A DNA stretch of 64,000 nt from Escherichia coli (GCF_051903065.1 NZ_CP178438.1); one strand, 5' to 3'. Positions 5,322-50,296 are shown, numbered from the stretch's first letter. The notes: generated from the sequence alone by a model not told the origin. A program made the numbers and translations.

Positions 5322-7241
5322 ATGAGTGGCGCTTTTAACAACGATGGTCGGGGCATATCTCCCTTAATTGCAACCTCCTGGGAGCGATGCAATAAGCTGA
5401 TGAAACGGGAGACATGGAACGTACCACATCAGGCCCAGGGCGTGACATTTGCTTCTATTTATCGGCGTAAGAAAGCGATGCTGACGCTCGGGCAGGCTGC
5501 GCTGGAAGATGCCTGGGAATATATGGCACCGCGAGAGTGTGCGCTGTTTATTCTCGATGAAACCGCCTGCATTCTCAGCCGTAATGGCGATCCGCAAACC
5601 TTGCAGCAGCTAAGTGCACTGGGATTCAATGACGGCACGTATTGCGCCGAGGGAATTATTGGTACTTGTGCGCTATCGTTAGCGGCTATCTCTGGTCAGG
5701 CCGTGAAAACGATGGCCGATCAGCATTTCAAACAGGCACTCTGGAACTGGGCCTTTTGCGCAACGCCGTTGTTTGACAGCAAGGGCCGATTGACGGGAAC
5801 AATAGCGCTGGCGTGTCCGGTTGAGCAAACTACCGCAGCTGATTTGCCGTTGACGTTGGCAATCGCCCGCGAGGTCGGTAATTTACTGCTGACGGACAGT
5901 TTGCTCGCTGAAACTAACCGTCATTTAAATCAACTTAATGCCCTGTTAGAAAGTATGGATGATGGCGTGATTAGCTGGGACGAGCAGGGTAATTTGCAAT
6001 TTATTAATGCCCAGGCGGCGCGGGTCTTGCGCCTTGACGCGACGGCAAGTCAGGGACGGGCAATCACTGAACTCTTAACGTTACCCGCCGTATTGCAACA
6101 AGCAATAAAACAGGCACATCCGCTCAAACACGTAGAAGCAACCTTTGAAAGCCAGCACCAGTTTATTGATGCGGTGATAACCCTTAAACCGATAATAGAA
6201 ACGCAGGGAACCAGCTTTATTTTGTTGCTCCATCCTGTGGAACAGATGCGGCAGTTAATGACCAGTCAATTAGGAAAAGTCAGCCATACCTTCGCTCATA
6301 TGCCACAGGACGATCCGCAAACCCGCCGCTTGATTCATTTTGGTCGCCAGGCGGCGCGCAGTAGCTTTCCTGTCCTGCTTTGTGGAGAAGAGGGCGTGGG
6401 CAAGGCACTGCTAAGTCAGGCAATTCATAATGAAAGCGAGCGTGCTGCAGGTCCTTATATCGCCGTCAATTGTGAGTTATATGGTGATGCGGCACTGGCG
6501 GAAGAATTTATTGGCGGCGATCGCACGGACAATGAAAATGGCCGTCTGAGTCGGCTGGAACTGGCGCACGGCGGCACGCTGTTTCTTGAAAAGATTGAAT
6601 ATCTGGCGGTGGAGTTACAGTCTGCTTTGCTTCAGGTTATCAAGCAGGGTGTTATCACGCGACTGGATGCGCGGCGTTTAATACCAATTGATGTCAAAGT
6701 GATTGCCACAACGACCGCGGACCTCGCAATGCTGGTGGAACAAAATCGTTTTAGTCGCCAGCTGTATTACGCGCTGCATGCATTTGAAATTACCATCCCG
6801 CCTCTGCGTATGCGGCGTGGCAGCATTCCGGCTCTGGTGAATAACAAATTACGCAGTCTTGAAAAACGCTTCTCTACGCGGCTGAAAATTGATGACGATG
6901 CCCTCGCTCGCCTGGTTTCCTGTGCATGGCCTGGCAACGATTTTGAACTTTACAGCGTCATCGAGAATCTTGCTCTGAGTAGTGATAATGGGCGCATTCG
7001 CGTCAGTGATTTGCCGGAACATCTGTTTACCGAGCAGGCAACAGATGATGTCAGCGCCACACGCCTTTCCACCAGTCTGTCATTTGCGGAAGTTGAAAAA
7101 GAGGCAATTATTAACGCAGCCCAGGTCACAGGCGGTCGCATTCAGGAAATGTCGGCTTTACTTGGAATCGGCCGCACTACGCTGTGGCGGAAAATGAAGC
7201 AACATGGCATTGATGCAGGGCAGTTTAAGCGCCGGGTATGA
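5322..7241 (+). CDS. dhaR: transcriptional regulator DhaR (enhancer-binding-protein family, C-terminal HTH)
   Basis: ORF 5313..7241; start moved to MSGAFNNDGRG (639 aa); divergent from dhaKLM. Confidence 0.92.
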   Translation: MSGAFNNDGRGISPLIATSWERCNKLMKRETWNVPHQAQGVTFASIYRRKKAMLTLGQAALEDAWEYMAPRECALFILDETACILSRNGDPQTLQQLSALGFNDGTYCAEGIIGTCALSLAAISGQAVKTMADQHFKQALWNWAFCATPLFDSKGRLTGTIALACPVEQTTAADLPLTLAIAREVGNLLLTDSLLAETNRHLNQLNALLESMDDGVISWDEQGNLQFINAQAARVLRLDATASQGRAITELLTLPAVLQQAIKQAHPLKHVEATFESQHQFIDAVITLKPIIETQGTSFILLLHPVEQMRQLMTSQLGKVSHTFAHMPQDDPQTRRLIHFGRQAARSSFPVLLCGEEGVGKALLSQAIHNESERAAGPYIAVNCELYGDAALAEEFIGGDRTDNENGRLSRLELAHGGTLFLEKIEYLAVELQSALLQVIKQGVITRLDARRLIPIDVKVIATTTADLAMLVEQNRFSRQLYYALHAFEITIPPLRMRRGSIPALVNNKLRSLEKRFSTRLKIDDDALARLVSCAWPGNDFELYSVIENLALSSDNGRIRVSDLPEHLFTEQATDDVSATRLSTSLSFAEVEKEAIINAAQVTGGRIQEMSALLGIGRTTLWRKMKQHGIDAGQFKRRV

Positions 7242-7340
7242 AAGACAGAAACGATTTCTGATACATCAGAGTGATCTGTATTTCATTCCGGCGCACGCTA
7301 ACATTTTTCAGCATCGTTTAAGGGCTTGTCTATCCCGCAC

Positions 7341-10226
7341 TTAAAAGCTGAAGCGATATCCTCCGTTGACTTGCTTCTGATCAAAGAGGTTACCCTGCGT
7401 GTAATCCGCTTCGAGGTAGAATGTGTGCTGTTTGTTATACTGTGCACTGACTCCCACGCCGTTATTCCAGCCATTACCTTTGAAACTGTACTTCTCCCGG
7501 GAGTTATTCAACTGATATTCTGTATCCCCTGAAAACTCGCGGATAGCGGCAGTCTTCACATACATATTCAGCTGGCTGTTGCCTGCGGTGATGTCATATC
7601 CCAGTATCATGCTGGCACGCCCCAGCAGCGATTCGTAGTGATTCAGATGTATATTGAGACCATTGCTCGCCTTCATAGCCATCTCATTCTGGTGGCTGTA
7701 TGTGAGCTGGGTTTGCGGCTCTATATAGAACCCATAACCAGTAGGGGTCAGGTTGAACCTCTGCCCGGCTTCCAGGGAGATGCTCAATCCATTCGCAGTG
7801 CCGTTGGCGTTAACGCCGTTGTTCTGACTGTCACGTACGTGGAAACTATTTTTCTGGCGCGATGCTTTTACAACGAGATCGCTGTAAAAACCGCTGTGTG
7901 CCATGTAACTGGCGTACATTCCCATGTAGTCTGAACGTGCGGTACCGTCGCCTCCACTATAGTCCGGCGATGCATGTGTTGAGCCAATATACAGACCGAC
8001 ATACAACGGCATTTCATCAGAGAGACGTTTATCCCCACCAAACTGGATACCGCTGTAACCCATGTCAAAGCCGCTCAGTTTGCCACTGGCGAAGGAGTCC
8101 AGGCTTCCCCCATAACTGCGCAGCCAGATATTACCGTCTTTACTCTGATTTCGCAGGTCACCCATTCGTTGCATCAGCGTACGGTTTTCAACATAGTTTA
8201 ATAAGTAACCGACATTGAGATAATTGCCGCCAGCATCTGCGGTCGTGGTGGGTTTAGGTGTGGGAGTGGGGTTAGGCGTAGGATCGGGTTCAGGCGTAGG
8301 ATCGGGGTTGACTATGGGAGGCTGAGCGGGAGCTGGTGTTGGTTCAGGATTAGGAGTCGGTTCCGGAACTGTCCCGGAAGCGTAAAGCTCCCAGTTAGTG
8401 CCATTTTTACGCACATCGTACAGATATCCCCCCAACTCAACCTGAGAAGACGCGCTGAACGAGGCCGCACCGTCAGTGGTTTTTACCACTGTCAGAACTT
8501 CATTTCCCGTTGTGGCCTCGCTGCCCTGGTTGCGGATAGCCAATACGTGATTACCAGCACTACTCCCGCTGATATTCAATAAATCCCCTTTATTATTAAC
8601 GCCATTACCCTCGCCAACAACATCAGCACGCATAATAAAGGTACTGTTACCGCTCAGGTTCTCTACGTTTAATGTGGTAAATGTGCCGGCAGTTGACCCG
8701 TGGCTGGCAAAATCGACAGTTGAATGGCTCAGCGCCAGTGTGTCGAGATTAGAATTACTTGTTACGTTCCAGACGCTGTTATTCATTGCAACGTCCAGTT
8801 TCCCGTCATTGACATTATCGCTAAGGGAGGAACCTGTCCAAACCGACCCAGAGTGCATATCCAGATTGATTAGCCCACCTTTGGAAAGAACGCTACCGTT
8901 GATAAGCATACGACCCGAGGCGTTGATGCGGCTGGCGGCATAACCATCGTCATGTTGCGTTGCGATGGCCATCTGGTCGGGTGTACTCATATCAATGACC
9001 AGATCGCTCGTGAGGTCGATCTGGCTGTTGGTCATGGCATAAATCCCCCTGGCTCCTGCCGCGCCGGTGATAGCCAAACTGTCTCCGGTTATTCTACCGC
9101 CGCTGAGTGCCCACAAACCCAGCGCCAGACTGCCATTACGATCAACCGTAATATCCGTATTTTGCATGTTGATAACAGCCGTTGCCGTCTGGGCCGAGGC
9201 ACCATAAGAACCGCCGGAAAAGATGCTGTTTCGTTGCGCTGCCGTGCCAGAAAAATTGATTGTCGCGTCTGAACCACTGGTGACGAGGCCACCGCCCTGC
9301 GCGGAAGAAATATGGCTATCTGCACCGATAGTGGTTGTACCACCACGAACTTCGACGCCATTGGCCGCGGCTCCAGTTACATCAACAGTGAGTGCATTCG
9401 CGCTAACCTGGCCAAAGCTCCAGAGGCCGTGAGCATTATCGCCATTGGTTTTAATGGTACTGTTTGTTCCGAGATCGACAACAGAGTTTTTCTGTACGTT
9501 TATCCCCATGGCGCTGTAGCCCTGAACATCGATTGTCAGGTCTGTCGCCGTAAAACGCGCAGGACCATTGGCGTTATTGCCGTTGAGACCACCGATATAA
9601 ACACCTGTACTTCCATCGGTCTTGATTTTACTTCCGCTTCCAAGATCGACACTGGTGCCATAGTCATTGATGGTTAGGCCTATACCGTTCGAGTTTTCAA
9701 TGGTGAATTGAGTGGCTGTTAGTGTTGAGCTATGCCCAATAATGATGCCGTCATCGTTACTCTTAATGGTGCTGCCTGTGCCTAAGTCAGCATGGGTATA
9801 GTCACCAATTAAATTAATGCCGATGGCAGAGGTTTGACCAACAACATCTACTGTGAGTCGGTTAGCTGTCAGGGAGCTTTTTTTGCCCTGAATAATGATT
9901 CCTTTTGCATATCCAGAGGCGTCGTTGACATTGACGGTGACATCATTACCCAGGTTGATATTGCCAGGCGTGTTTCCTGCTGGGGTCATTACACCATAGA
10001 GGTTTCCTGATGGATCGGCGGTATCTCCTGTAATTCTGTCACCATCATTAATAGTAATATTGGTGCCATATTGACTTCCTGTATCAGCAGCTATCAGCAG
10101 GGGGGAAAAGATAATTGCATTCAAACCAATAGCGCCAAATTTTATCAGTTGAATTGAGGGCGAACGGATTTTTAATTCAGCGAGACGATCGGCTTTGGTA
10201 TTCCCATTGTGTTGTTTGATGCCCAT
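7341..10226 (-). CDS. ycgV: autotransporter adhesin YcgV (passenger repeats, Pro/Thr-rich linker, C-terminal beta-barrel)
   Basis: 961-aa ORF with Gly/Thr/Ser/Asn-rich repetitive passenger region, linker PEPTPNPEPTPAPAQPPIVNPDPTPEPDPTPNPTPTPKPTT and C-terminal ..GGYRFSF. Exact start codon uncertain. Confidence 0.85.
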   Translation of the reverse strand: MGIKQHNGNTKADRLAELKIRSPSIQLIKFGAIGLNAIIFSPLLIAADTGSQYGTNITINDGDRITGDTADPSGNLYGVMTPAGNTPGNINLGNDVTVNVNDASGYAKGIIIQGKKSSLTANRLTVDVVGQTSAIGINLIGDYTHADLGTGSTIKSNDDGIIIGHSSTLTATQFTIENSNGIGLTINDYGTSVDLGSGSKIKTDGSTGVYIGGLNGNNANGPARFTATDLTIDVQGYSAMGINVQKNSVVDLGTNSTIKTNGDNAHGLWSFGQVSANALTVDVTGAAANGVEVRGGTTTIGADSHISSAQGGGLVTSGSDATINFSGTAAQRNSIFSGGSYGASAQTATAVINMQNTDITVDRNGSLALGLWALSGGRITGDSLAITGAAGARGIYAMTNSQIDLTSDLVIDMSTPDQMAIATQHDDGYAASRINASGRMLINGSVLSKGGLINLDMHSGSVWTGSSLSDNVNDGKLDVAMNNSVWNVTSNSNLDTLALSHSTVDFASHGSTAGTFTTLNVENLSGNSTFIMRADVVGEGNGVNNKGDLLNISGSSAGNHVLAIRNQGSEATTGNEVLTVVKTTDGAASFSASSQVELGGYLYDVRKNGTNWELYASGTVPEPTPNPEPTPAPAQPPIVNPDPTPEPDPTPNPTPTPKPTTTADAGGNYLNVGYLLNYVENRTLMQRMGDLRNQSKDGNIWLRSYGGSLDSFASGKLSGFDMGYSGIQFGGDKRLSDEMPLYVGLYIGSTHASPDYSGGDGTARSDYMGMYASYMAHSGFYSDLVVKASRQKNSFHVRDSQNNGVNANGTANGLSISLEAGQRFNLTPTGYGFYIEPQTQLTYSHQNEMAMKASNGLNIHLNHYESLLGRASMILGYDITAGNSQLNMYVKTAAIREFSGDTEYQLNNSREKYSFKGNGWNNGVGVSAQYNKQHTFYLEADYTQGNLFDQKQVNGGYRFSF

Positions 10227-10983
10227 ACCACTCCTATATAGTACCCAGGCTATGGGTCTATGGATTTTGTCATTTTGTTTAAGTCAATGAATAATATCCT
10301 CTTATCATCATGATATTTGTATGGTGCAATCATGATGAGCTTCTCTGAGAATAATTCTCTATTACCGGGCAAAATCAGGAACACAGGAATTAATATATAT
10401 TTAACATCCCCCTTACAAAGGTGAGTTTAGATCAAGTTATTCCCTAAGTTGTCGTTACTTATTCCAATTCGTTACTATGAATATGACAAAAACATTACAC
10501 CAAACAGCGGTTAAATAATTTGGTAATATTTTTGGTAATAATCCTAATTAGTTATGGAATTTTCGCTCGATGTATCTGCATAACAAAAACAATATGCGCC
10601 ATTTTTGCATTACTAATAAGAAAAAGCAAAAAACATCGATATTCATTTTTGATCAATGATTTTTCTGGCATATCGTTATTATCGTGCTATTGGTTATCAT
10701 TTTCATCTTGCCAGGATCGCACGTAATCTCATTATTCGGGGACTTTATCTGCGGGATATTACCCTTCAGGTAAGTCCTTTTCTCGCCAGCATATTGGAGC
10801 GTGATCAATATTGATCGGCTGTGAAGGGGGTGATGTGTAGTGGAACAAAAACTGACGTTATATCACTACTAATGAGATATCCGTCATCTGAACACTGATG
10901 TCTTTAATTATTCTGGTGGTTCACTGTAGGCAATAAGCACAAAAGTGTAGGATGTTACAAGAATGATTAGGACTCGGTGAAAT

Positions 10984-11011
10984 GAAAAATCCACGCAATT
11001 GCGTGGATTTT
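10984..11011 (-). terminator. intrinsic terminator downstream of ychF
   Basis: Perfect hairpin AAAATCCACGCAATTGCGTGGATTTT, followed by a U-run on the minus strand. Confidence 0.6.
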
Positions 11012-11067
11012 ATATACTTTTGCGCTCTTCATGAGATTTAGCGAAACCTCATGAGACAACAAATTAA

Positions 11068-12159
11068 TTAGACGTTGAAAAGGAAGTTCATCACATCGCC
11101 ATCTTTAACGATGTAATCTTTACCTTCTGCACGCATTTTGCCTGCTTCTTTCGCGCCTTGTTCACCTTTGTAAGTGATGAAATCTTCAAACGAGATGGTT
11201 TGTGCACGGATAAAGCCTTTTTCAAAATCAGTATGGATTTTGCCCGCTGCCTGCGGCGCGGTTGCTCCAACCGGAATGGTCCATGCACGCACTTCTTTCA
11301 CCCCAGCGGTGAAGTAAGTTTGCAGGTTCAGCAGCTTATAACCGGCACGGATCACACGGTTCAGGCCCGGCTCTTCCAGCCCAAGCTCCTGCATAAACTC
11401 GTCACGTTCTTCGTCGTCCAGTTCGGCAATGTCTGCTTCAACAGCAGCACAAACCGGAACCACAACAGAACCTTCTTTCGCCGCGATTTCACGCACCTGG
11501 TCAAGATATGGGTTGTTTTCAAAACCGTCTTCGTTGACGTTGGCGATGTACATTGTTGGTTTCAGCGTCAGGAAGCTCAGGTAACGAATAGCCGCTTTCT
11601 CTTCAGCGCTTAAATCCAGCGCGCGCAGCATACCTGCGTTTTCCAGCTGGGGCAGGCATTTTTCCAGGACCGCCAGCTCAGCTTTCGCGTCTTTATCGCC
11701 ACCTTTGGCTTTCTTCTGTACGCGATGAATCGCACGTTCGCAGGTGTCGAGGTCTGCCAGCGCCAGTTCGGTGTTGATAACTTCAATATCGTCAGCCGGG
11801 TTAACTTTGCCGGAAACGTGAATGATGTTGTCATTTTCAAAGCAGCGAACAACGTGACCGATCGCTTCGGTTTCACGGATGTTGGTCAGGAACTGGTTAC
11901 CCAGACCTTCGCCTTTCGATGCGCCTTTTACCAGACCGGCGATATCGACAAATTCCATGGTCGTGGGAAGCGTACGTTGCGGTTTTACGATTTCAGCCAG
12001 TTGATTCAGGCGAGGATCAGGCATTGGTACGACGCCTGTGTTCGGCTCAATGGTGCAGAATGGAAAGTTGGCCGCTTCAATACCGGCTTTGGTCAGCGCG
12101 TTGAACAGGGTAGATTTCCCGACGTTGGGCAAACCGACGATACCGCATTTGAATCCCAT
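11068..12159 (-). CDS. ychF: ribosome-binding ATPase YchF (Obg-family P-loop NTPase)
   Basis: 363-aa ORF beginning [23 protein letters not shown] (G1 motif). Confidence 0.96.
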
Positions 12160-12275
12160 GATTTAAATCACCTTAATATCTTAATAATCAACCTGTTATT
12201 GCTAACAGATTGCAGAAATGGAAATAACTTTGCCTATTATACACGGCACTCGGCAAAAATGCCGCAGACAACGAC

Positions 12276-23387: not shown

Positions 23388-23417
23388 GTCTTAGCGTTCT
23401 GCGTTAAGACTTTTTTT
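23388..23417 (+). terminator. kdsA intrinsic terminator
   Basis: Hairpin GTCTTA..TAAGAC followed by T7. Confidence 0.5.
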
Positions 23418-23513
23418 ATGGGTGCCGGATACAAAAAGGGCCGCAGGCTGTTACCCCTGCGGCCGGTTTCGGGCGCATATTGCCATCACGGCAGCCTGAC
23501 GCCCGTTTTCATC

Positions 23514-23621
23514 TTACTTCCGGTTACGCCACCAGCTGACAATCGCTGCGGTAATAATTCCCGCCAGGATCGGTGCTGCCAGGTCGTGCCAGAAAATCAT
23601 GGCAAACTGCGCGAGCGTCAT
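23514..23621 (-). CDS. ldrA: type I toxin Ldr (35-aa membrane peptide), copy 1
   Basis: Minus-strand ATG..TAA translating MTLAQFAMIFWHDLAAPILAGIITAAIVSWWRNRK; followed on the minus strand by hairpin GGCCGCAGG..CCTGCGGCC plus U-run (23430-23464). Confidence 0.9.
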   Translation of the reverse strand: MTLAQFAMIFWHDLAAPILAGIITAAIVSWWRNRK

Positions 23622-23668
23622 ATAGCCGCCTTGTTGTAATGACAACATTTTGCGGCTATTCTTGAATT

Positions 23669-23736
23669 GTTGATGGTTCAAGATTAGCCCCCGTTCTGTT
23701 GTCAGGTTTTACCTCTCAACGTGCGGGGGTTTTCTC
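23669..23736 (+). ncRNA. rdlA: Rdl antisense RNA (antitoxin), copy 1; ends approximate
   Basis: Plus-strand promoter-like TTGTAA-17bp-TATTCT (23634-23662), then about 66 nt ending in hairpin GCCCCCG..CGGGGG plus TTTTCTCTTT (23687-23740). Lies in the ldr leader on the opposite strand. Placement inferred from sequence; not confirmed against a reference. Confidence 0.45.
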
Positions 23737-24049
23737 TTTCCAGCAACCAATGCCACCAGGGATAAAGCCCCCGCAACATTGCGCCTCACCGGATAACGCC
23801 GGCTTGGTGTGGATACTACGACTCAATTCATCTTCACTTCATCCCTGAAATGTTTGCAATGAAGAGTGCATTCCGGTTTTTCAACAGCTGTTACAGTCGT
23901 TTCATGAGTGCTCTGGATGATGCTTCCAGCTCGGGTTGCCAATATTTACTTGTGGAAGTGATAAAGACAAAAATGGCCGCAGGCTGTTACCCCTGCGGCC
24001 GGTTTCGGGCGCATATTGCCATCACGGCAGCCTGACGCCCGTTTTCACC

Positions 24050-24157
24050 TTACTTCCGGTTACGCCACCAGCTGACAATCGCTGCGGTAATAATTCCCGC
24101 CAGGATCGGTGCTGCCAGGTCGTGCCAGAAAATCATGGCAAACTGCGCGAGCGTCAT
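24050..24157 (-). CDS. ldrB: type I toxin Ldr, copy 2 (identical peptide to copy 1)
   Basis: Same 108-nt ORF 536 bp downstream of copy 1. Confidence 0.9.
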   Translation of the reverse strand: MTLAQFAMIFWHDLAAPILAGIITAAIVSWWRNRK

Positions 24158-24204
24158 ATAGCCGCCTTGTTGTAATGACAACATTTTGCGGCTATTCTTG
24201 AATT

Positions 24205-24272
24205 GTTGATGGTTCAAGATTAGCCCCCGTTCTGTTGTCAGGTTTTACCTCTCAACGTGCGGGGGTTTTCTC
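24205..24272 (+). ncRNA. rdlB: Rdl antisense RNA, copy 2; ends approximate
   Basis: Same promoter and terminator arrangement, shifted 536 bp. Confidence 0.45.
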
Positions 24273-24585
24273 TTTCCAGCAACCAATGCCACCAGGGATA
24301 AAGCCCCCGCAACATTGCGCCTCACCGGATAACGCCGGCTTGGTGTGGATACTACGACTCAATTCATCTTCACTTCATCCCTGAAATGTTTGCAATGAAG
24401 AGTGCATTCCGGTTTTTCAACAGCTGTTACAGTCGTTTCATGAGTGCTCTGGATGATGCTTCCAGCTCGGGTTGCCAATATTTACTTGTGGAAGTGATAA
24501 AGACAAAAATGGCCGCAGGCTGTTACCCCTGCGGCCGGTTTCGGGCGCATATTGCCATCACGGCAGCCTGACGCCCGTTTTCACC

Positions 24586-24693
24586 TTACTTCCGGTTACG
24601 CCACCAGCCGACAATCGCTGCGGTAATAATTCCCGCCAGGATCGGTGCCGCCAGGTCGTGCCAGAAAGTCATGGCAAACTGCGCGAGCGTCAT
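24586..24693 (-). CDS. ldrC: type I toxin Ldr, copy 3 (variant peptide)
   Basis: Translates MTLAQFAMTFWHDLAAPILAGIITAAIVGWWRNRK; differs from copies 1 and 2 at two residues (I9T, S29G). Confidence 0.9.
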   Translation of the reverse strand: MTLAQFAMTFWHDLAAPILAGIITAAIVGWWRNRK

Positions 24694-24740
24694 ATAGCCG
24701 CCTTGTTGTAATGACAACATTTTGCGGCTATTCTTGAAGT

Positions 24741-24808
24741 GTCTGGTTTCAAGATTAGCCCCCGTTTTGTTGTCAGGTTTTACCTCTCAACGTGCGGGGG
24801 TTTTCTCT
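24741..24808 (+). ncRNA. rdlC: Rdl antisense RNA, copy 3; ends approximate, 5' region diverged
   Basis: Terminator hairpin conserved (AGCCCCCG..CGGGGG + TTTTCTCTTT) but the upstream 20 bp differ from copies 1 and 2 (GAAGTGTCTGGTTTCAAG versus GAATTGTTGATGGTTCAAG). Confidence 0.4.
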
Positions 24809-25097
24809 TTCCAGCAACCAATGCCACCAGGGATAAAGCCCCCGCAACATTGCGCCTCACCGGATAACGCCGGCTTGGTGTGGATACTACGTCTCAATTC
24901 ATCTTCACTTCATCCCTGAAATGTTTGCAATAAAGAGTACATTCCGGCTTTTCAACAGCTGTTGCAGTGGTTTCGTGCAGGTTGTGGTACAGGCTCGCAA
25001 TTCTGATTAACGACCTGTCCAGGTAGTATGAAGAAATACAATAAGCAGGAATTTATATTATCTCCCCCGATTTCCGTCATCGGAGGAGATATAACTG

Positions 25098-26198
25098 TCA
25101 GGCAAATATCGTCATCAAATAGGCGGCAAACAGTGCCAGATGCGCTGCGCCATTGAGCACGTTAGTACGTCCGGTGGAGAAGGAGATATGGCACAGCACT
25201 AAAGAGGCCACCATCACCACCATTTCTGGCGCACCAAGTGCAAACTGCAATTCGTTACCCGTCATAAATGCAATTAGCGTGACGACAGGTACGGTAAGCG
25301 AAATTGTTGCTAACACTGAACCAAAGAACAGATTCATCGCGCGCTGGACCTGGTTGTTCAACACTGCTTTTAATGCACCTAAACCTTCCGGCGACAGAAT
25401 CAACAGTGCCACCAGGAAGCCAGTAAAGGCGACAGGGGCATTCATGCTGTCGAGCAAAGTCTCCAGCGGGCTGGCGTTCATTTTGGTGACTGCAATAACG
25501 GCAATCAGGTGGATAATCAACCAGATAGCATGCCACAGGCTGCTATGGGCAGACGGTTTACCGTGGTGCGGGTCGTCGTCATCACTGTCATCTTCGTGCT
25601 CGTAGACAAACAAACTTTGATGCGTTTTGGTCTGGATCAGCAAAAATACGCCATACATTGCCGCAGAAATTAATGCTACCAGTAACGCCTGACCGGTTGA
25701 AAAATTCGCCGCAGGCAGAGCCATTGGAAATACCAGTACGATTATCGCCAGGGGGAACAGCGCAATTAAATACTGCTTAATACCAAACAGATTCATATAT
25801 TGGGTGGCAAACTTACGACCGCCCAACAATAATGAAAAGCCGACCAGCCCACCGGTAACAATCATAATGATCGAATAGAGCGTATCACGCATTAGCGTTG
25901 GCGCGGCGTCGCCGGTTGCCATTAAAGCTGAAATCAAACTGACTTCAAGAATAACCACTGAAAGGCTAAGAATAAGCGAACCGTAAGGTTCTCCCAGGCG
26001 ATGGGCTAATACGTCCGCATGACGGACAACACTAAAGGCGCTACTTAAAATACCAATAAGCGCAAGAAGATTGATGGCAATGACCACTGGTAGTGTCTGG
26101 CTGCTTCCCCACAGGAACAGCACTACCAGCGCCAGAACCGGGAAAATAAGCGAAGTCTCCTTGTGGCGGGTTTTTACCGCCTCTTGAGCATTTGACAT
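25098..26198 (-). CDS. chaA: Na+/K+(Ca2+):H+ antiporter ChaA
   Basis: ORF 25098..26285; trimmed to MSNAQEAVKTRHKETSLIFPVLALVVLF (366 aa). Confidence 0.93.
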   Translation of the reverse strand: MSNAQEAVKTRHKETSLIFPVLALVVLFLWGSSQTLPVVIAINLLALIGILSSAFSVVRHADVLAHRLGEPYGSLILSLSVVILEVSLISALMATGDAAPTLMRDTLYSIIMIVTGGLVGFSLLLGGRKFATQYMNLFGIKQYLIALFPLAIIVLVFPMALPAANFSTGQALLVALISAAMYGVFLLIQTKTHQSLFVYEHEDDSDDDDPHHGKPSAHSSLWHAIWLIIHLIAVIAVTKMNASPLETLLDSMNAPVAFTGFLVALLILSPEGLGALKAVLNNQVQRAMNLFFGSVLATISLTVPVVTLIAFMTGNELQFALGAPEMVVMVASLVLCHISFSTGRTNVLNGAAHLALFAAYLMTIFA

Positions 26199-33858: not shown

Positions 33859-34134
33859 GTGGCTTCTGTTTCTATCAGCTGTCCCTCCTGTTCAGCTACT
33901 GACGGGGTGGTGCGTAACGGCAAAAGCACCGCCGGACATCAGCGCTATCTCTGCTCTCACTGCCGTAAAACATGGCAACTGCAGTTCACTTACACCGCTT
34001 CTCAACCCGGTACGCACCAGAAAATCATTGATATGGCCATGAATGGCGTTGGATGCCGGGCAACAGCCCGCATTATGGGCGTTGGCCTCAACACGATTTT
34101 ACGTCACTTAAAAAACTCAGGCCGCAGTCGGTAA
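33859..34134 (+). CDS. insA: IS1 InsA (DNA-binding regulator/transposase N-terminal part)
   Basis: 91-aa [43 protein letters not shown] (zinc-finger-like). Confidence 0.95.
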
Positions 34135-34556
34135 CCTCGCGCATACAGCCGGGCAGTGACGTCATCGTCTGCGCGGAAATGGACGAACAGTGGGGCTATG
34201 TCGGGGCTAAATCGCGCCAGCGCTGGCTGTTTTACGCGTATGACAGGCTCCGGAAGACGGTTGTTGCGCACGTATTCGGTGAACGCACTATGGCGACGCT
34301 GGGGCGTCTTATGAGCCTGCTGTCACCCTTTGACGTGGTGATATGGATGACGGATGGCTGGCCGCTGTATGAATCCCGCCTGAAGGGAAAGCTGCACGTA
34401 ATCAGCAAGCGATATACGCAGCGAATTGAGCGGCATAACCTGAATCTGAGGCAGCACCTGGCACGGCTGGGACGGAAGTCGCTGTCGTTCTCAAAATCGG
34501 TGGAGCTGCATGACAAAGTCATCGGGCATTATCTGAACATAAAACACTATCAATAA
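34053..34556 (+). CDS. insB: IS1 InsB frame (expressed as an InsAB' fusion by -1 frameshift)
   Basis: 167-aa ORF in the -1 frame overlapping the insA 3' end; ..[22 protein letters not shown].. Confidence 0.9.
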
Positions 34557-34598
34557 GTTGGAGTCATTACCGGATTTCATTAAGAGCCATTAATATGT

Positions 34599-46972: not shown

Positions 46973-47386
46973 TTATTGCTTGATAAGGAAATCGTCGAGG
47001 GATTTACCTTGCTCATCCATTGCTTTTTTGATTACAGCTGGAGTACGGCCCTGGCCAGTCCAGGTTTTAGTTTCGCCGTTTTCGTCAACGTAGCTATATT
47101 TTGCCGGACGCTGAGCACGTTTAGCTTTGGTGCCAGATTTAACGGCGGCAAGGCTATTCAGCAGTTCGTTCGGGTCAATACCGTCAGCGATCAGCATTTC
47201 GCGATATTGCTGCAGTTTACGAGTGCGCTCTTCAACTTCAGCAGCAGCCGCGCTTTCTTCTTCGCGACGTTCGTTAACAACAACTTCTAATTTTTCCAGC
47301 ATTTCTTCCAGCGTTTCAAGTGTACATTCTCTTGCCTGCGCACGAAGAGTACGGATGTTGTTCAGAATTTTAAGTGCTTCGCTCAT
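46973..47386 (-). CDS. hns: nucleoid-associated protein H-NS
   Basis: 137-aa [44 protein letters not shown]. Confidence 0.98.
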
Positions 47387-47989
47387 TGTAGTAATCTCAA
47401 ACTTATATTGGGGTGGTTTGTTGAGGTAATAATAGAGCCTTAAATTCAGTTGTGCAATAGCCAGGAATGTAAGGAATTCAAAATTGTTCTTTATTTTGTG
47501 CCGCCAATAAATATCTTTTCATAAAATTAGCCAGAAAAGACGCGGCATATAGCCCTATTTGTACCGATGATTTCGCAGCACGTGAGGTTAAAACTTCCTG
47601 ATTCATGTCACATTTTATGGGGAGATTATCGTAGGCTGACGACCTTTCAGTCTTCTGTATTAGTCGTGTTTACGAGAATTCCCTATTAAGCGAATGATGA
47701 AAAGTAGAACAGTCGCAATAAGAGCAGGGACTTAGTATTGCACTATCTCCTGGAGGTCAACAGAGGGCTATTACTTGCGCAACAGGTTAAAGATTGTGAA
47801 TAGTTACCAGCAGTCATTTACCCGCTTATAACAAGCGAGGCAGTTGTAATGATAGCTCAGAAGGATTATGCAAGGCTTCGTAAGGGAGAACGCATATACC
47901 ACTTCTGTGCATACTGTTGAGCTGAAAAACTGACGAATTATGATAAACTCCAGCCAACTTTATTTCATATCATTGAGGGCCTGTGGCTG

Positions 47990-48607
47990 ATGGCACAGCT
48001 ATATTTCTACTATTCCGCAATGAATGCGGGTAAGTCTACAGCATTGTTGCAATCTTCATACAATTACCAGGAACGCGGCATGCGCACTGTCGTATATACG
48101 GCAGAAATTGATGATCGCTTTGGTGCCGGGAAAGTCAGCTCGCGTATAGGTTTGTCATCGCCTGCAAAATTATTTAACCAAAATTCATCATTATTTGCCG
48201 AGATTCGTGCGGAACATGAACAGCAGGCAATTCATTGTGTACTGGTTGATGAATGCCAGTTTTTAACCAGACAACAAGTATATGAATTATCGGAGGTTGT
48301 AGATCAACTCGATATACCCGTACTTTGTTATGGTTTACGTACCGATTTTCGAGGTGAATTATTTATTGGTAGCCAATACTTACTGGCATGGTCCGACAAA
48401 CTGGTTGAATTAAAAACCATCTGTTTTTGTGGCCGTAAAGCAAGCATGGTGCTGCGTCTTGATCAAGCAGGCAGACCTTATAACGAAGGTGAGCAGGTGG
48501 TTATTGGTGGTAATGAACGCTACGTTTCTGTATGCCGTAAACACTATAAAGAGGCGTTAGAAGTCGGCTCATTAACGGCTATTCAGGAAAGGCATCGCCA
48601 CGATTAA
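47990..48607 (+). CDS. tdk: thymidine kinase
   Basis: 205-aa [33 protein letters not shown] (P-loop). Confidence 0.96.
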
Positions 48608-48870: not shown

Positions 48871-50296
48871 TAATGCCGATCAGTTAAGGATCAGTTGACC
48901 GATCCAGTGGCTGTGTAAGAATCCGGAAACGCTCACTCGTTTCCGGATTTTTTTATGCACATTGGACAGGCTCTTGATCTGGTATCCCGTTACGATTCTC
49001 TGCGTAACCCACTGACTTCTCTGGGGGATTACCTCGACCCCGAACTCATCTCTCGTTGCCTTGCCGAATCAGGTACTGTAACGCTACGCAAGCGCCGTCT
49101 TCCCCTCGAAATGATGGTCTGGTGTATTGTTGGCATGGCGCTTGAGCGTAAAGAACCTCTTCACCAGATTGTGAATCGCCTGGACATCATGCTGCCGGGC
49201 AATCGCCCCTTCGTTGCCCCCAGTGCTGTTATTCAGGCCCGCCAGCGCCTGGGAAGTGAGGCTGTCCGCCGCGTGTTCACGAAAACAGCGCAGCTCTGGC
49301 ATAACGCCACGCCGCATCCGCACTGGTGCGGCCTGACCCTGCTGGCCATCGATGGTGTGTTCTGGCGCACACCGGATACACCAGAGAACGATGCAGCCTT
49401 CCCTCGCCAGACACATGCCGGGACCCCGGCGCTCTACCCGCAGGTCAAAATGGTCTGCCAGATGGAACTGACCAGCCATCTGCTGACGGCTGCAGCCTTC
49501 GGCACGATGAAGAACAGCGAAAATGAGCTTGCTGAGCAACTTATAGAACAAACCGGCGATAACACTCTGACGTTAATGGATAAAGGTTATTACTCACTGG
49601 GATTGTTAAATGCCTGGAGCCTGGCGGGAGAACACCGCCACTGGATGATCCCTCTCAGAAAGGGAGCTCAATATGAAGAGATCAGAAAACTGGGTAAAGG
49701 CGATCATCTGGTGAAGCTGAAAACCAGCCCGCAGGCACGAAAAAAGTGGCCGGGACTGGGAAATGAGGTGACAGCCCGCCTGCTGACCGTGACGCGCAAA
49801 GGAAAAGTCTGCCATCTGCTGACGTCGATGACGGACGCCATGCGCTTCCCCGGAGGAGAAATGGCGGATCTGTACAGTCATCGCTGGGAAATCGAACTGG
49901 GATACAGGGAGATAAAACAGACGATGCAACTGAGCAGGCTGACGCTGAGAAGTAAAAAGCCTGAGCTTGTGGAGCAAGAGCTGTGGGGTGTCTTACTGGC
50001 TTATAATCTGGTGAGATATCAGATGATTAAAATGGCGGAACATCTGAAAGGTTACTGGCCAAATCAACTGAGCTTCTCAGAATCATGCGGAATGGTGATG
50101 AGAATGCTGATGACATTGCAGGGCGCTTCACCGGGACGTATACCGGAGCTGATGCGCGATCTTGCAAGTATGGGACAACTTGTGAAATTACCGACAAGAA
50201 GGGAAAGGGCCTTCCCGAGAGTGGTAAAGGAGAGGCCCTGGAAATACCCCACAGCCCCGAAAAAGAGCCAGTCAGTTGCTTAACTGACTGGCATTA
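48871..50296 (+). mobile_element. IS4 insertion sequence (1426 bp), intact
   Basis: 18-bp imperfect terminal inverted repeats TAATGCCGATCAGTTAAG (48871-48888) and CTTAACTGACTGGCATTA (50279-50296); flanked by 12-bp direct repeat CCCCAGAAGGGG (48859-48870 and 50297-50308); contains a 442-aa transposase ORF. Confidence 0.92.
48955..50283 (+). CDS. insG: IS4 transposase (DDE family)
   Basis: 442-aa [43 protein letters not shown]..., recognised as the IS4 transposase. Confidence 0.9.

Follow-up and report, generated by a model that had tools for sequence, protein, structure and literature searches.

The AT-rich gap between ycgV and ychF of Escherichia coli: a catalogued H-NS-bound promoter island joined to the ychF 3'UTR and terminator

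AT-rich acquired loci are subject to xenogeneic silencing by H-NS, as in the case of the cryptic chaperone-usher fimbriae and of bgl. The regulatory region of agn43 (flu) contains a Dam/OxyR phase switch. Tyrosine integrases of the P4 family use attachment sites of the tRNA/tmRNA type, e.g. CP4-57 at ssrA and P4 at leuX. Promoter islands are defined with the program PlatProm as stretches of at least 300 bp with an extreme density of predicted start points, and 78 of them were listed for E. coli K-12 by Panyukov & Ozoline (2013; PMC3661553, Table 1). The list includes the entry '1255333_301 ycgV(-)ychF(-)', which carries the flag 'A' (H-NS-bound in all of the compared ChIP studies, namely those of Grainger, Kahramanoglou and Oshima) and is associated with a gene predicted to be foreign by Nakamura et al. 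(PMC3661553). Another cryptic autotransporter gene, yfaL, was also reported to have a promoter island (PMC3661553). The gap described here lies between ycgV and ychF in a 64-kb stretch of E. coli DNA (the window, i.e. the whole stretch that was analyzed). It corresponds to the already catalogued H-NS-bound promoter island of ycgV, joined to the 3'UTR and terminator of ychF, and is in this respect ordinary and already known.

The gap (10227-11067) is 841 bp long; its counterpart in K-12 MG1655 measures 768 bp. E. coli ECNB21-M121 is 99.97% identical to the window across the full 64 kb and identical in the gap, and its annotation was overlaid on the window for the gap statistics (n = 49). No RefSeq feature is annotated inside the gap in ECNB21-M121 or in K-12 MG1655. 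The gap ranks first in length among the 49 annotated gaps of the window (median 143 bp), the runner-up being tdk/hns with 603 bp. The GC content of the gap is 0.352. All other gaps taken together have 0.428, and the entire window has 0.501. When the 64 kb were scanned in 300-bp stretches, the eight lowest all started between 10251 and 10451, with GC contents of 0.297-0.313. Composition is uneven along the gap and rises to approximately 0.43 at 10700-10900. Three short gaps are similarly AT-rich: chaB/chaA (0.32), ychT/adhE (0.36) and pth/ychF (0.36). Tracts of at least four A/T bases occur at 22.6 per kb in the gap and at 10.1 per kb window-wide, about a twofold difference; 19 such tracts were observed, compared to 12.6 ± 3.2 in mononucleotide shuffles of the gap. 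The sequence-only reading had described an unusually long non-coding gap, strongly AT-rich and with many A/T tracts, and all of this was confirmed, as was a GC content below that of the other gaps pooled. It had also let the gap end at the ychF terminator; the length stands, but the border does not, as the terminator hairpin (10986-11011) sits inside the gap. The hns gene is located in the same window (approximately 46974-47387, minus strand), next to the tdk/hns gap (approximately 47388-47990; GC 0.40). Two strain-specific insertion sequences are placed in the window by the ECNB21-M121 annotation, IS4 (approximately 48956-50284) downstream of adhE and IS1A (approximately 33860-34557) between narG and narK.

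The gap is composed of two unrelated pieces: about 90 bp of ychF 3'UTR and about 750 bp of E. coli-specific AT-rich DNA. The features of the region are listed in Table 1.

Table 1. Features of the ycgV-ychF region, in coordinates of the window.
Feature	Position	Strand	Basis
ycgV coding sequence, classical autotransporter adhesin	7341..10226	-	ORF list, Pfam, RefSeq name
ycgV-proximal region, probable 5'UTR and core promoter, match to the YbdO probe	10227..10352	-	Sequence, primer mapping
AT-rich core, counterpart of the K-12 promoter island and H-NS-bound interval	10384..10684		PMC3661553 Table 1 and K-12 alignment
75-bp indel polymorphism, GCCAG direct repeat at its flanks	10711..10785		K-12 alignment
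Fast-evolving spacer, most variable part of the gap, without detectable function	10786..10976		Diversity
ychF 3'UTR, two hairpins	10977..11067	-	Terminator scan, fold, cross-species conservation
ychF coding sequence, core gene bounding the region	11068..12159	-	ORF list, RefSeq; dN/dS 0.01

The K-12 island interval, transferred to the window via the K-12 record and the alignment, coincides with the lowest-GC core of the gap (GC 0.29-0.32). The K-12 gap is about 95% identical to the gap in the window and lacks 75 bp of it; the ChIP data are those of K-12. The hexamer TAnnnT occurs in the core at 5.6 per 100 bp versus 2.2 window-wide, a density of 2.4-2.6 times the window average and within the top 2.6% of 300-bp windows. 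A crude scan with the two-hexamer sigma-70 consensus yielded 3 promoter-like sites in the gap versus 5.1 ± 2.2 in dinucleotide shuffles. Since TAnnnT is dense but the consensus scan does not exceed the shuffles, the excess of 'promoters' follows from composition. The high-affinity H-NS 10-mer TCGATAAATT has no match with up to two mismatches in 10227-10976, and is not enriched window-wide (70 matches versus 65.6 ± 8.7 expected). Predicted curvature, which had been proposed as a further check on an H-NS-silenced locus, turned out to be unexceptional: 9.7 degrees per 30 bp in the gap versus 8.9 in the window, with 18% of 841-bp windows equal to or above the gap. These values were calculated with a wedge model from Bolshoy/Trifonov parameters and are approximate. 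The largest local curvature peak of the gap is found at the terminator. The intergenic gaps of three tandem Ldr-family type I toxin genes (approximately 23400-25100, with repeats of about 428 bp between them) are among the highest predicted curvature peaks of the window. Antisense Rdl RNAs are presumably encoded at these ldr/rdl loci as well and are absent from the RefSeq annotation. A low peak of the RpoH holoenzyme in genomic SELEX was reported for the K-12 spacer (PMC5493296) and maps near position 10960 of the window, assuming U00096.2 coordinates. In the main-text passages concerning ychF, the RpoD-holoenzyme SELEX tables give no peak in the ycgV-ychF spacer.

The locus resembles the described promoter islands: its K-12 orthologue is itself catalogued, with an AT-rich sequence, many -10-like hexamers and bound H-NS, and next to it lies a gene that was acquired horizontally and is poorly expressed. 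It differs in that the present copy is about 5% off K-12, has a 75-bp indel just outside the island and shows no promoter excess in the consensus scan. With H-NS-silenced loci it shares the low relative GC content, the published H-NS occupancy (in K-12), the accessory distribution and the cryptic downstream gene. It differs from them by a spacer without a strong high-affinity motif and by average predicted curvature; moreover, the searched literature mentioning ycgV contained no report of its derepression in hns mutants. The sequence-only reading had named the gap an H-NS-silenced locus and suggested a comparison with H-NS ChIP data. This interpretation is supported by the published data for K-12, in which the orthologue of the core was scored as H-NS-bound in all compared studies (PMC3661553); from this binding we infer that H-NS silences ycgV, and that it does likewise in this strain.

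The ycgV gene has 961 codons and an ATG start and is uninterrupted in the window, as had been read from the sequence. A Shine-Dalgarno motif (GGAG) is located 7 nt ahead of the ATG. The product matches the Pfam families Pertactin (2e-38) and Autotransporter beta-domain (2.3e-37), and YcgV was described as an autotransporter with a role in adhesion and biofilms (Roux et al. 2005, as cited in PMC3796261). In APEC, the LysR-type regulator YbdO represses ycgV about 3-4-fold and shifts a 126-bp ycgV probe in vitro (PMC11681634). The primers of this probe, ACCACTCCTATATAGTACCC and ATTCTCTGAGAAGCTCATCA (PMC11681634), delimit the ycgV-proximal region of Table 1; ATTCTCTGAGAAGCTCATCA differs from this strain at one position. 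The stretch 10200-10319 shows little diversity (about 0.01 in the 12-strain alignment described below). A frame of 44 codons with a GTG start (10250-10384, minus strand) is located directly upstream of ycgV and has a dN/dS of 0.15, based on very few substitutions. It was rejected as a gene, as it lacks a Shine-Dalgarno motif and is interrupted by a nonsense allele in H3, one of the 12 strains; its low dN/dS most likely reflects constraint on the promoter and 5'UTR rather than coding. Sites for sigma-54 and GalR have been reported for ycgV; they fall within the gene and outside the gap.

Among 5426 complete E. coli genomes, ycgV is present in 4118 and the AT-rich centre of the gap in 4120, and the two are found together in 76%. 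The near-equal counts indicate that both behave as one module. The AT-rich DNA and ycgV are one accessory module, which occupies a slot of variable content delimited by the core genes dhaR and ychF. In ST131, the slot holds an integrase island of about 27 kb instead of ycgV. In Citrobacter amalonaticus (10410-12245 of its locus), a GntR-like regulator ORF and an aldolase-like ORF, both named by reading the translations, replace ycgV, and the slot is thus variable between genera too. The horizontal influence assumed in the sequence-only reading agrees with this distribution. Whether ycgV is intact or a pseudogene was found to depend on the strain: it is intact in the window, and a pseudogene or remnant in several lineages. 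The gene is truncated in O157:H7 (Z910) with loss of the C-terminal barrel, carries an internal stop in AR437 and is split by an IS1 insertion in TUM1881. In HH45 it is deleted almost completely, with scraps left, and the deletion extends over the AT-rich spacer and into the ychF terminator, half of whose stem is missing. The window has the 75-bp segment of Table 1, with the GCCAG direct repeat on both sides; K-12 and O104:H4 do not. About half of the ycgV-bearing genomes lack it (their match is in two pieces), as do 2 of the 12 aligned strains. This indel, of in-frame length, looks like a microhomology-mediated deletion. A 4.5-kb contig labeled 'MAG: Actinomycetes bacterium' (JAEWQO010000123.1) contains the same spacer, with YchF 99.4% and the YcgV N-terminus 98.7% identical to E. 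coli. Its source is almost certainly E. coli DNA that contaminated this MAG or was wrongly binned into it.

The 3'UTR of ychF consists of stem-loop 1 (11019-11063), an A-rich linker and the terminator hairpin, which is palindromic and forms a strong intrinsic terminator. The RNA folds into two hairpins with -33.2 kcal/mol (z = -6.0), and these hairpins end the pth-ychF transcript. The terminator probably acts in both directions, also halting transcription from the other side. The 22-bp palindrome of the terminator, AATCCACGCAATTGCGTGGATT, was searched as an exact 22-mer in species-representative genomes and was found in 86 stretches of genomes of other species. The genera include Citrobacter, Klebsiella, Salmonella, Yersinia, Serratia, Erwinia and Pantoea, and also Pectobacterium, Edwardsiella, Hafnia, Budvicia, Xenorhabdus and Photorhabdus. 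In 62 distinct loci, AATCCACGCAATTGCGTGGATT is located about 60-100 bp beyond the stop codon of the ychF orthologue. The pairing of stem-loop 1 is kept in 88.6% of cells, with compensatory changes at 6 of 10 pairs; RNAalifold alone gave only the terminator, and stem-loop 1 was specified by hand and then counted. The exact match demanded by the search biases the sample of loci, and the invariance of the second hairpin, the terminator, is for this reason partly by construction.

The same end of ychF borders integrase islands in other genomes. ST131 and the window share only about 10979-11067 of the gap. The island of ST131 strain 4224 (1405-28869 of its ychF-dhaR locus) is about 27 kb long and decayed, with a P4-type integrase. 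Its further cargo comprises fragments of ISEc24, ISEc52 and IS91, a second tyrosine recombinase, RadC, a reverse transcriptase of the retron Ec67 family and an ABC-three-component system, which characterizes it as a defence island at a ychF hotspot. No attR copy was found in the ST131 locus, either by fuzzy matching with up to five mismatches or by blastn-short. Homologues of the ST131 integrase adjoin the hairpin in 20 of 80 loci, mostly within about 150 bp, and are often truncated. The integrase contains the domains Arm-DNA-bind_3, Phage_int_M and Phage_integrase, lies about 130-150 bp beyond the hairpin and is transcribed away from ychF, and a conserved island end with GAGTAC repeats is common to many loci. 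Second copies of AATCCACGCAATTGCGTGGATT occur away from ychF in several genomes, and some of these copies comprise the final ychF codons, TTCAACGTCTAA, followed by the 3'UTR in full. Such far copies are the signature of an attachment site whose target regains its 3' end from the island. Direct repeats of the att core were seen in loci of Salmonella diarizonae, Raoultella, Citrobacter and Erwinia. The last codons of ychF and its 3'UTR (approximately 10977-11079) thus behave as an att site of P4-type integrase islands. The likeness to tRNA/tmRNA sites concerns only the ychF-proximal 90 bp and consists in the adjoining integrase and in a far island end that repeats the 3' end of the target. In contrast, the site used here belongs to a protein-coding gene rather than to an RNA gene, comprising its 3' end together with the 3'UTR, and is without a recognizable island in the window. 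In the searched literature, ychF was not found as an integration site in Enterobacterales; the reports found concern pneumococcal prophages and actinobacterial pipolins.

Diversity and ORFs of the gap were compared across 12 diverse E. coli strains in which the region had been aligned. In the centre (10431-10930), diversity amounts to 0.045, compared to 0.034 at third codon positions of ychF and 0.028 at those of ycgV. The centre evolves at about the neutral rate. As its diversity is at least that of the third codon positions of ychF, no constrained element is hidden in it; selection does not act on the exact sequence and could act only on composition. The peak, 0.077 at 10800-10859, lies in the fast-evolving spacer. 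Constraint is limited to two parts of the gap, the ycgV-proximal 100 bp or so (about 0.01) and the ychF-proximal 137 bp or so (0.013).

An unannotated gene for a small protein or small RNA hidden in the gap is very improbable. Such a gene would be in line with two frames that are open in all 12 strains, one of 52 codons (10656-10814, plus strand) and one of 51 codons antisense to it, with a T-run of the terminator hairpin on the plus strand too, and with two sub-threshold Rfam matches to Leu_leader (31-34 bits versus a threshold of 50), the best obtained. The dN/dS values of the frames are, however, 1.19 and 0.75, compared to the reference values of 0.01 for ychF and 0.20 for ycgV, and the 52-codon frame has no Shine-Dalgarno motif; both were rejected as genes. 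The longest ORF of the gap (68 aa) was rejected likewise: it exists only in this strain, where it is open because of a 1-bp deletion, and meets a stop at codon 11 in all other strains but one. No ORF of the gap matched the NCBIfam models and no Rfam family reached its gathering score in the gap, the Leu_leader matches being explained by the terminator hairpin on which both sit. Neutral diversity in the centre and the lack of annotation in RefSeq, K-12 included, also speak against a gene, and the earlier statement that the gap holds no credible ORF is upheld. Still more improbable is a phase-variation switch by Dam methylation like that of Ag43 (agn43/flu). The gap contains five GATC sites, and in a preprint ycgV is one of the biofilm genes whose GATC sites are differentially methylated. 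Two of the Dam sites belong to GATCAATATTGATC, a perfect 14-bp palindrome at 10803-10816. But five sites are no excess over the expected 3.6, and a single one of them is shared unchanged by all 12 strains; the sites are scattered 200-590 bp from the start codon without a cluster, and a substitution breaks the palindrome in K-12, so that it is probably not functional. With sites neither in excess nor conserved, the evidence is against such a switch. A region with GATC sites upstream of an autotransporter adhesin of the AIDA/Ag43 type is what the locus has in common with agn43; it lacks the conserved GATC cluster, and the likeness is rejected.

Two further explanations concern the origin and the role of the spacer. 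The ycgV module and spacer could be a decayed integrative island that entered at the att site at the 3' end of ychF, the spacer being the leftover integrase or regulatory end. In favor of this, the spacer starts exactly where the att homology stops (approximately 10977), the same site holds P4-type integrase islands in ST131 and in genomes of about 20 other species, many of the integrases at the site are truncated and decaying in place, and the ycgV module is accessory. However, a tblastn search of the gap with the ST131 integrase gave only chance matches (best E = 0.24, on the wrong strand), and no integrase or integrase remnant was found beside the att site in the window. No second att copy was detected in the window (up to five mismatches; blastn-short), and an nhmmer profile of 15 island left ends had no match in 7000-10987. 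The score of a similarity of about 25 nt directly beyond the att core did not stand out from those of 2000 shuffles. No evidence was thus found for the ycgV module being a remnant of an integrase island, and we consider this origin improbable. The spacer might instead be functionless filler, AT-rich by mutation bias, with H-NS bound passively and without a regulatory role for ycgV. A diversity of the centre at or above that of synonymous sites, the common 75-bp polymorphism in about half of the genomes, the loss of the entire spacer in HH45 and the decay of ycgV in several lineages would all suit filler. On the other hand, spacer and ycgV are kept together in 76% of the genomes, the spacer is the most AT-rich DNA of the 64 kb, beyond the other non-coding gaps pooled, and its ycgV-proximal 100 bp or so are constrained. 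Filler appears unlikely on this evidence; in practice it differs from the best explanation only on whether the silencing is 'for' anything.

The best explanation combines, as a single account, the two-piece structure of the gap with a silencing platform for the accessory gene ycgV, made up of H-NS, the promoter island and YbdO; we assign it a probability of roughly 0.8. According to this explanation, the AT-rich DNA would serve as the platform, on which H-NS may nucleate and from which it may spread over the promoter region of ycgV. RNA polymerase could bind many of the -10-like sequences unproductively, as in the published behavior of promoter islands, and YbdO would bind the 126 bp beside the start codon. 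H-NS, trapping of RNA polymerase and YbdO would jointly keep the adhesin cryptic under laboratory conditions. A wider reading, which joins the silencing platform to the att site, is more tentative and somewhat doubtful. It takes the last codons of ychF and the two-hairpin 3'UTR as a non-tRNA att site across Enterobacterales, and the AT-rich ycgV module as old cargo stranded at the hotspot and quieted by H-NS. As part of this reading, repeated overwriting by island-borne copies would explain the identity of the terminator from Escherichia to Yersinia and Xenorhabdus. A small RNA might, in addition, be derived from the conserved 3'UTR.

The known promoter-island and H-NS locus of ycgV was re-identified here from raw sequence, and it fits the familiar rule that cryptic adhesins lie behind long, AT-rich, H-NS-bound upstream regions. 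The locus is a clean example in which platform and gene are inherited or lost as a unit, while the exact sequence drifts neutrally and the composition persists. The more interesting by-product is the 3' end and terminator of ychF, which behaves as a conserved integration site that may be order-wide, with defence islands in ST131. The dhaR-ychF interval is a hotspot worth adding to surveys of the insertion sites of islands and defence systems.
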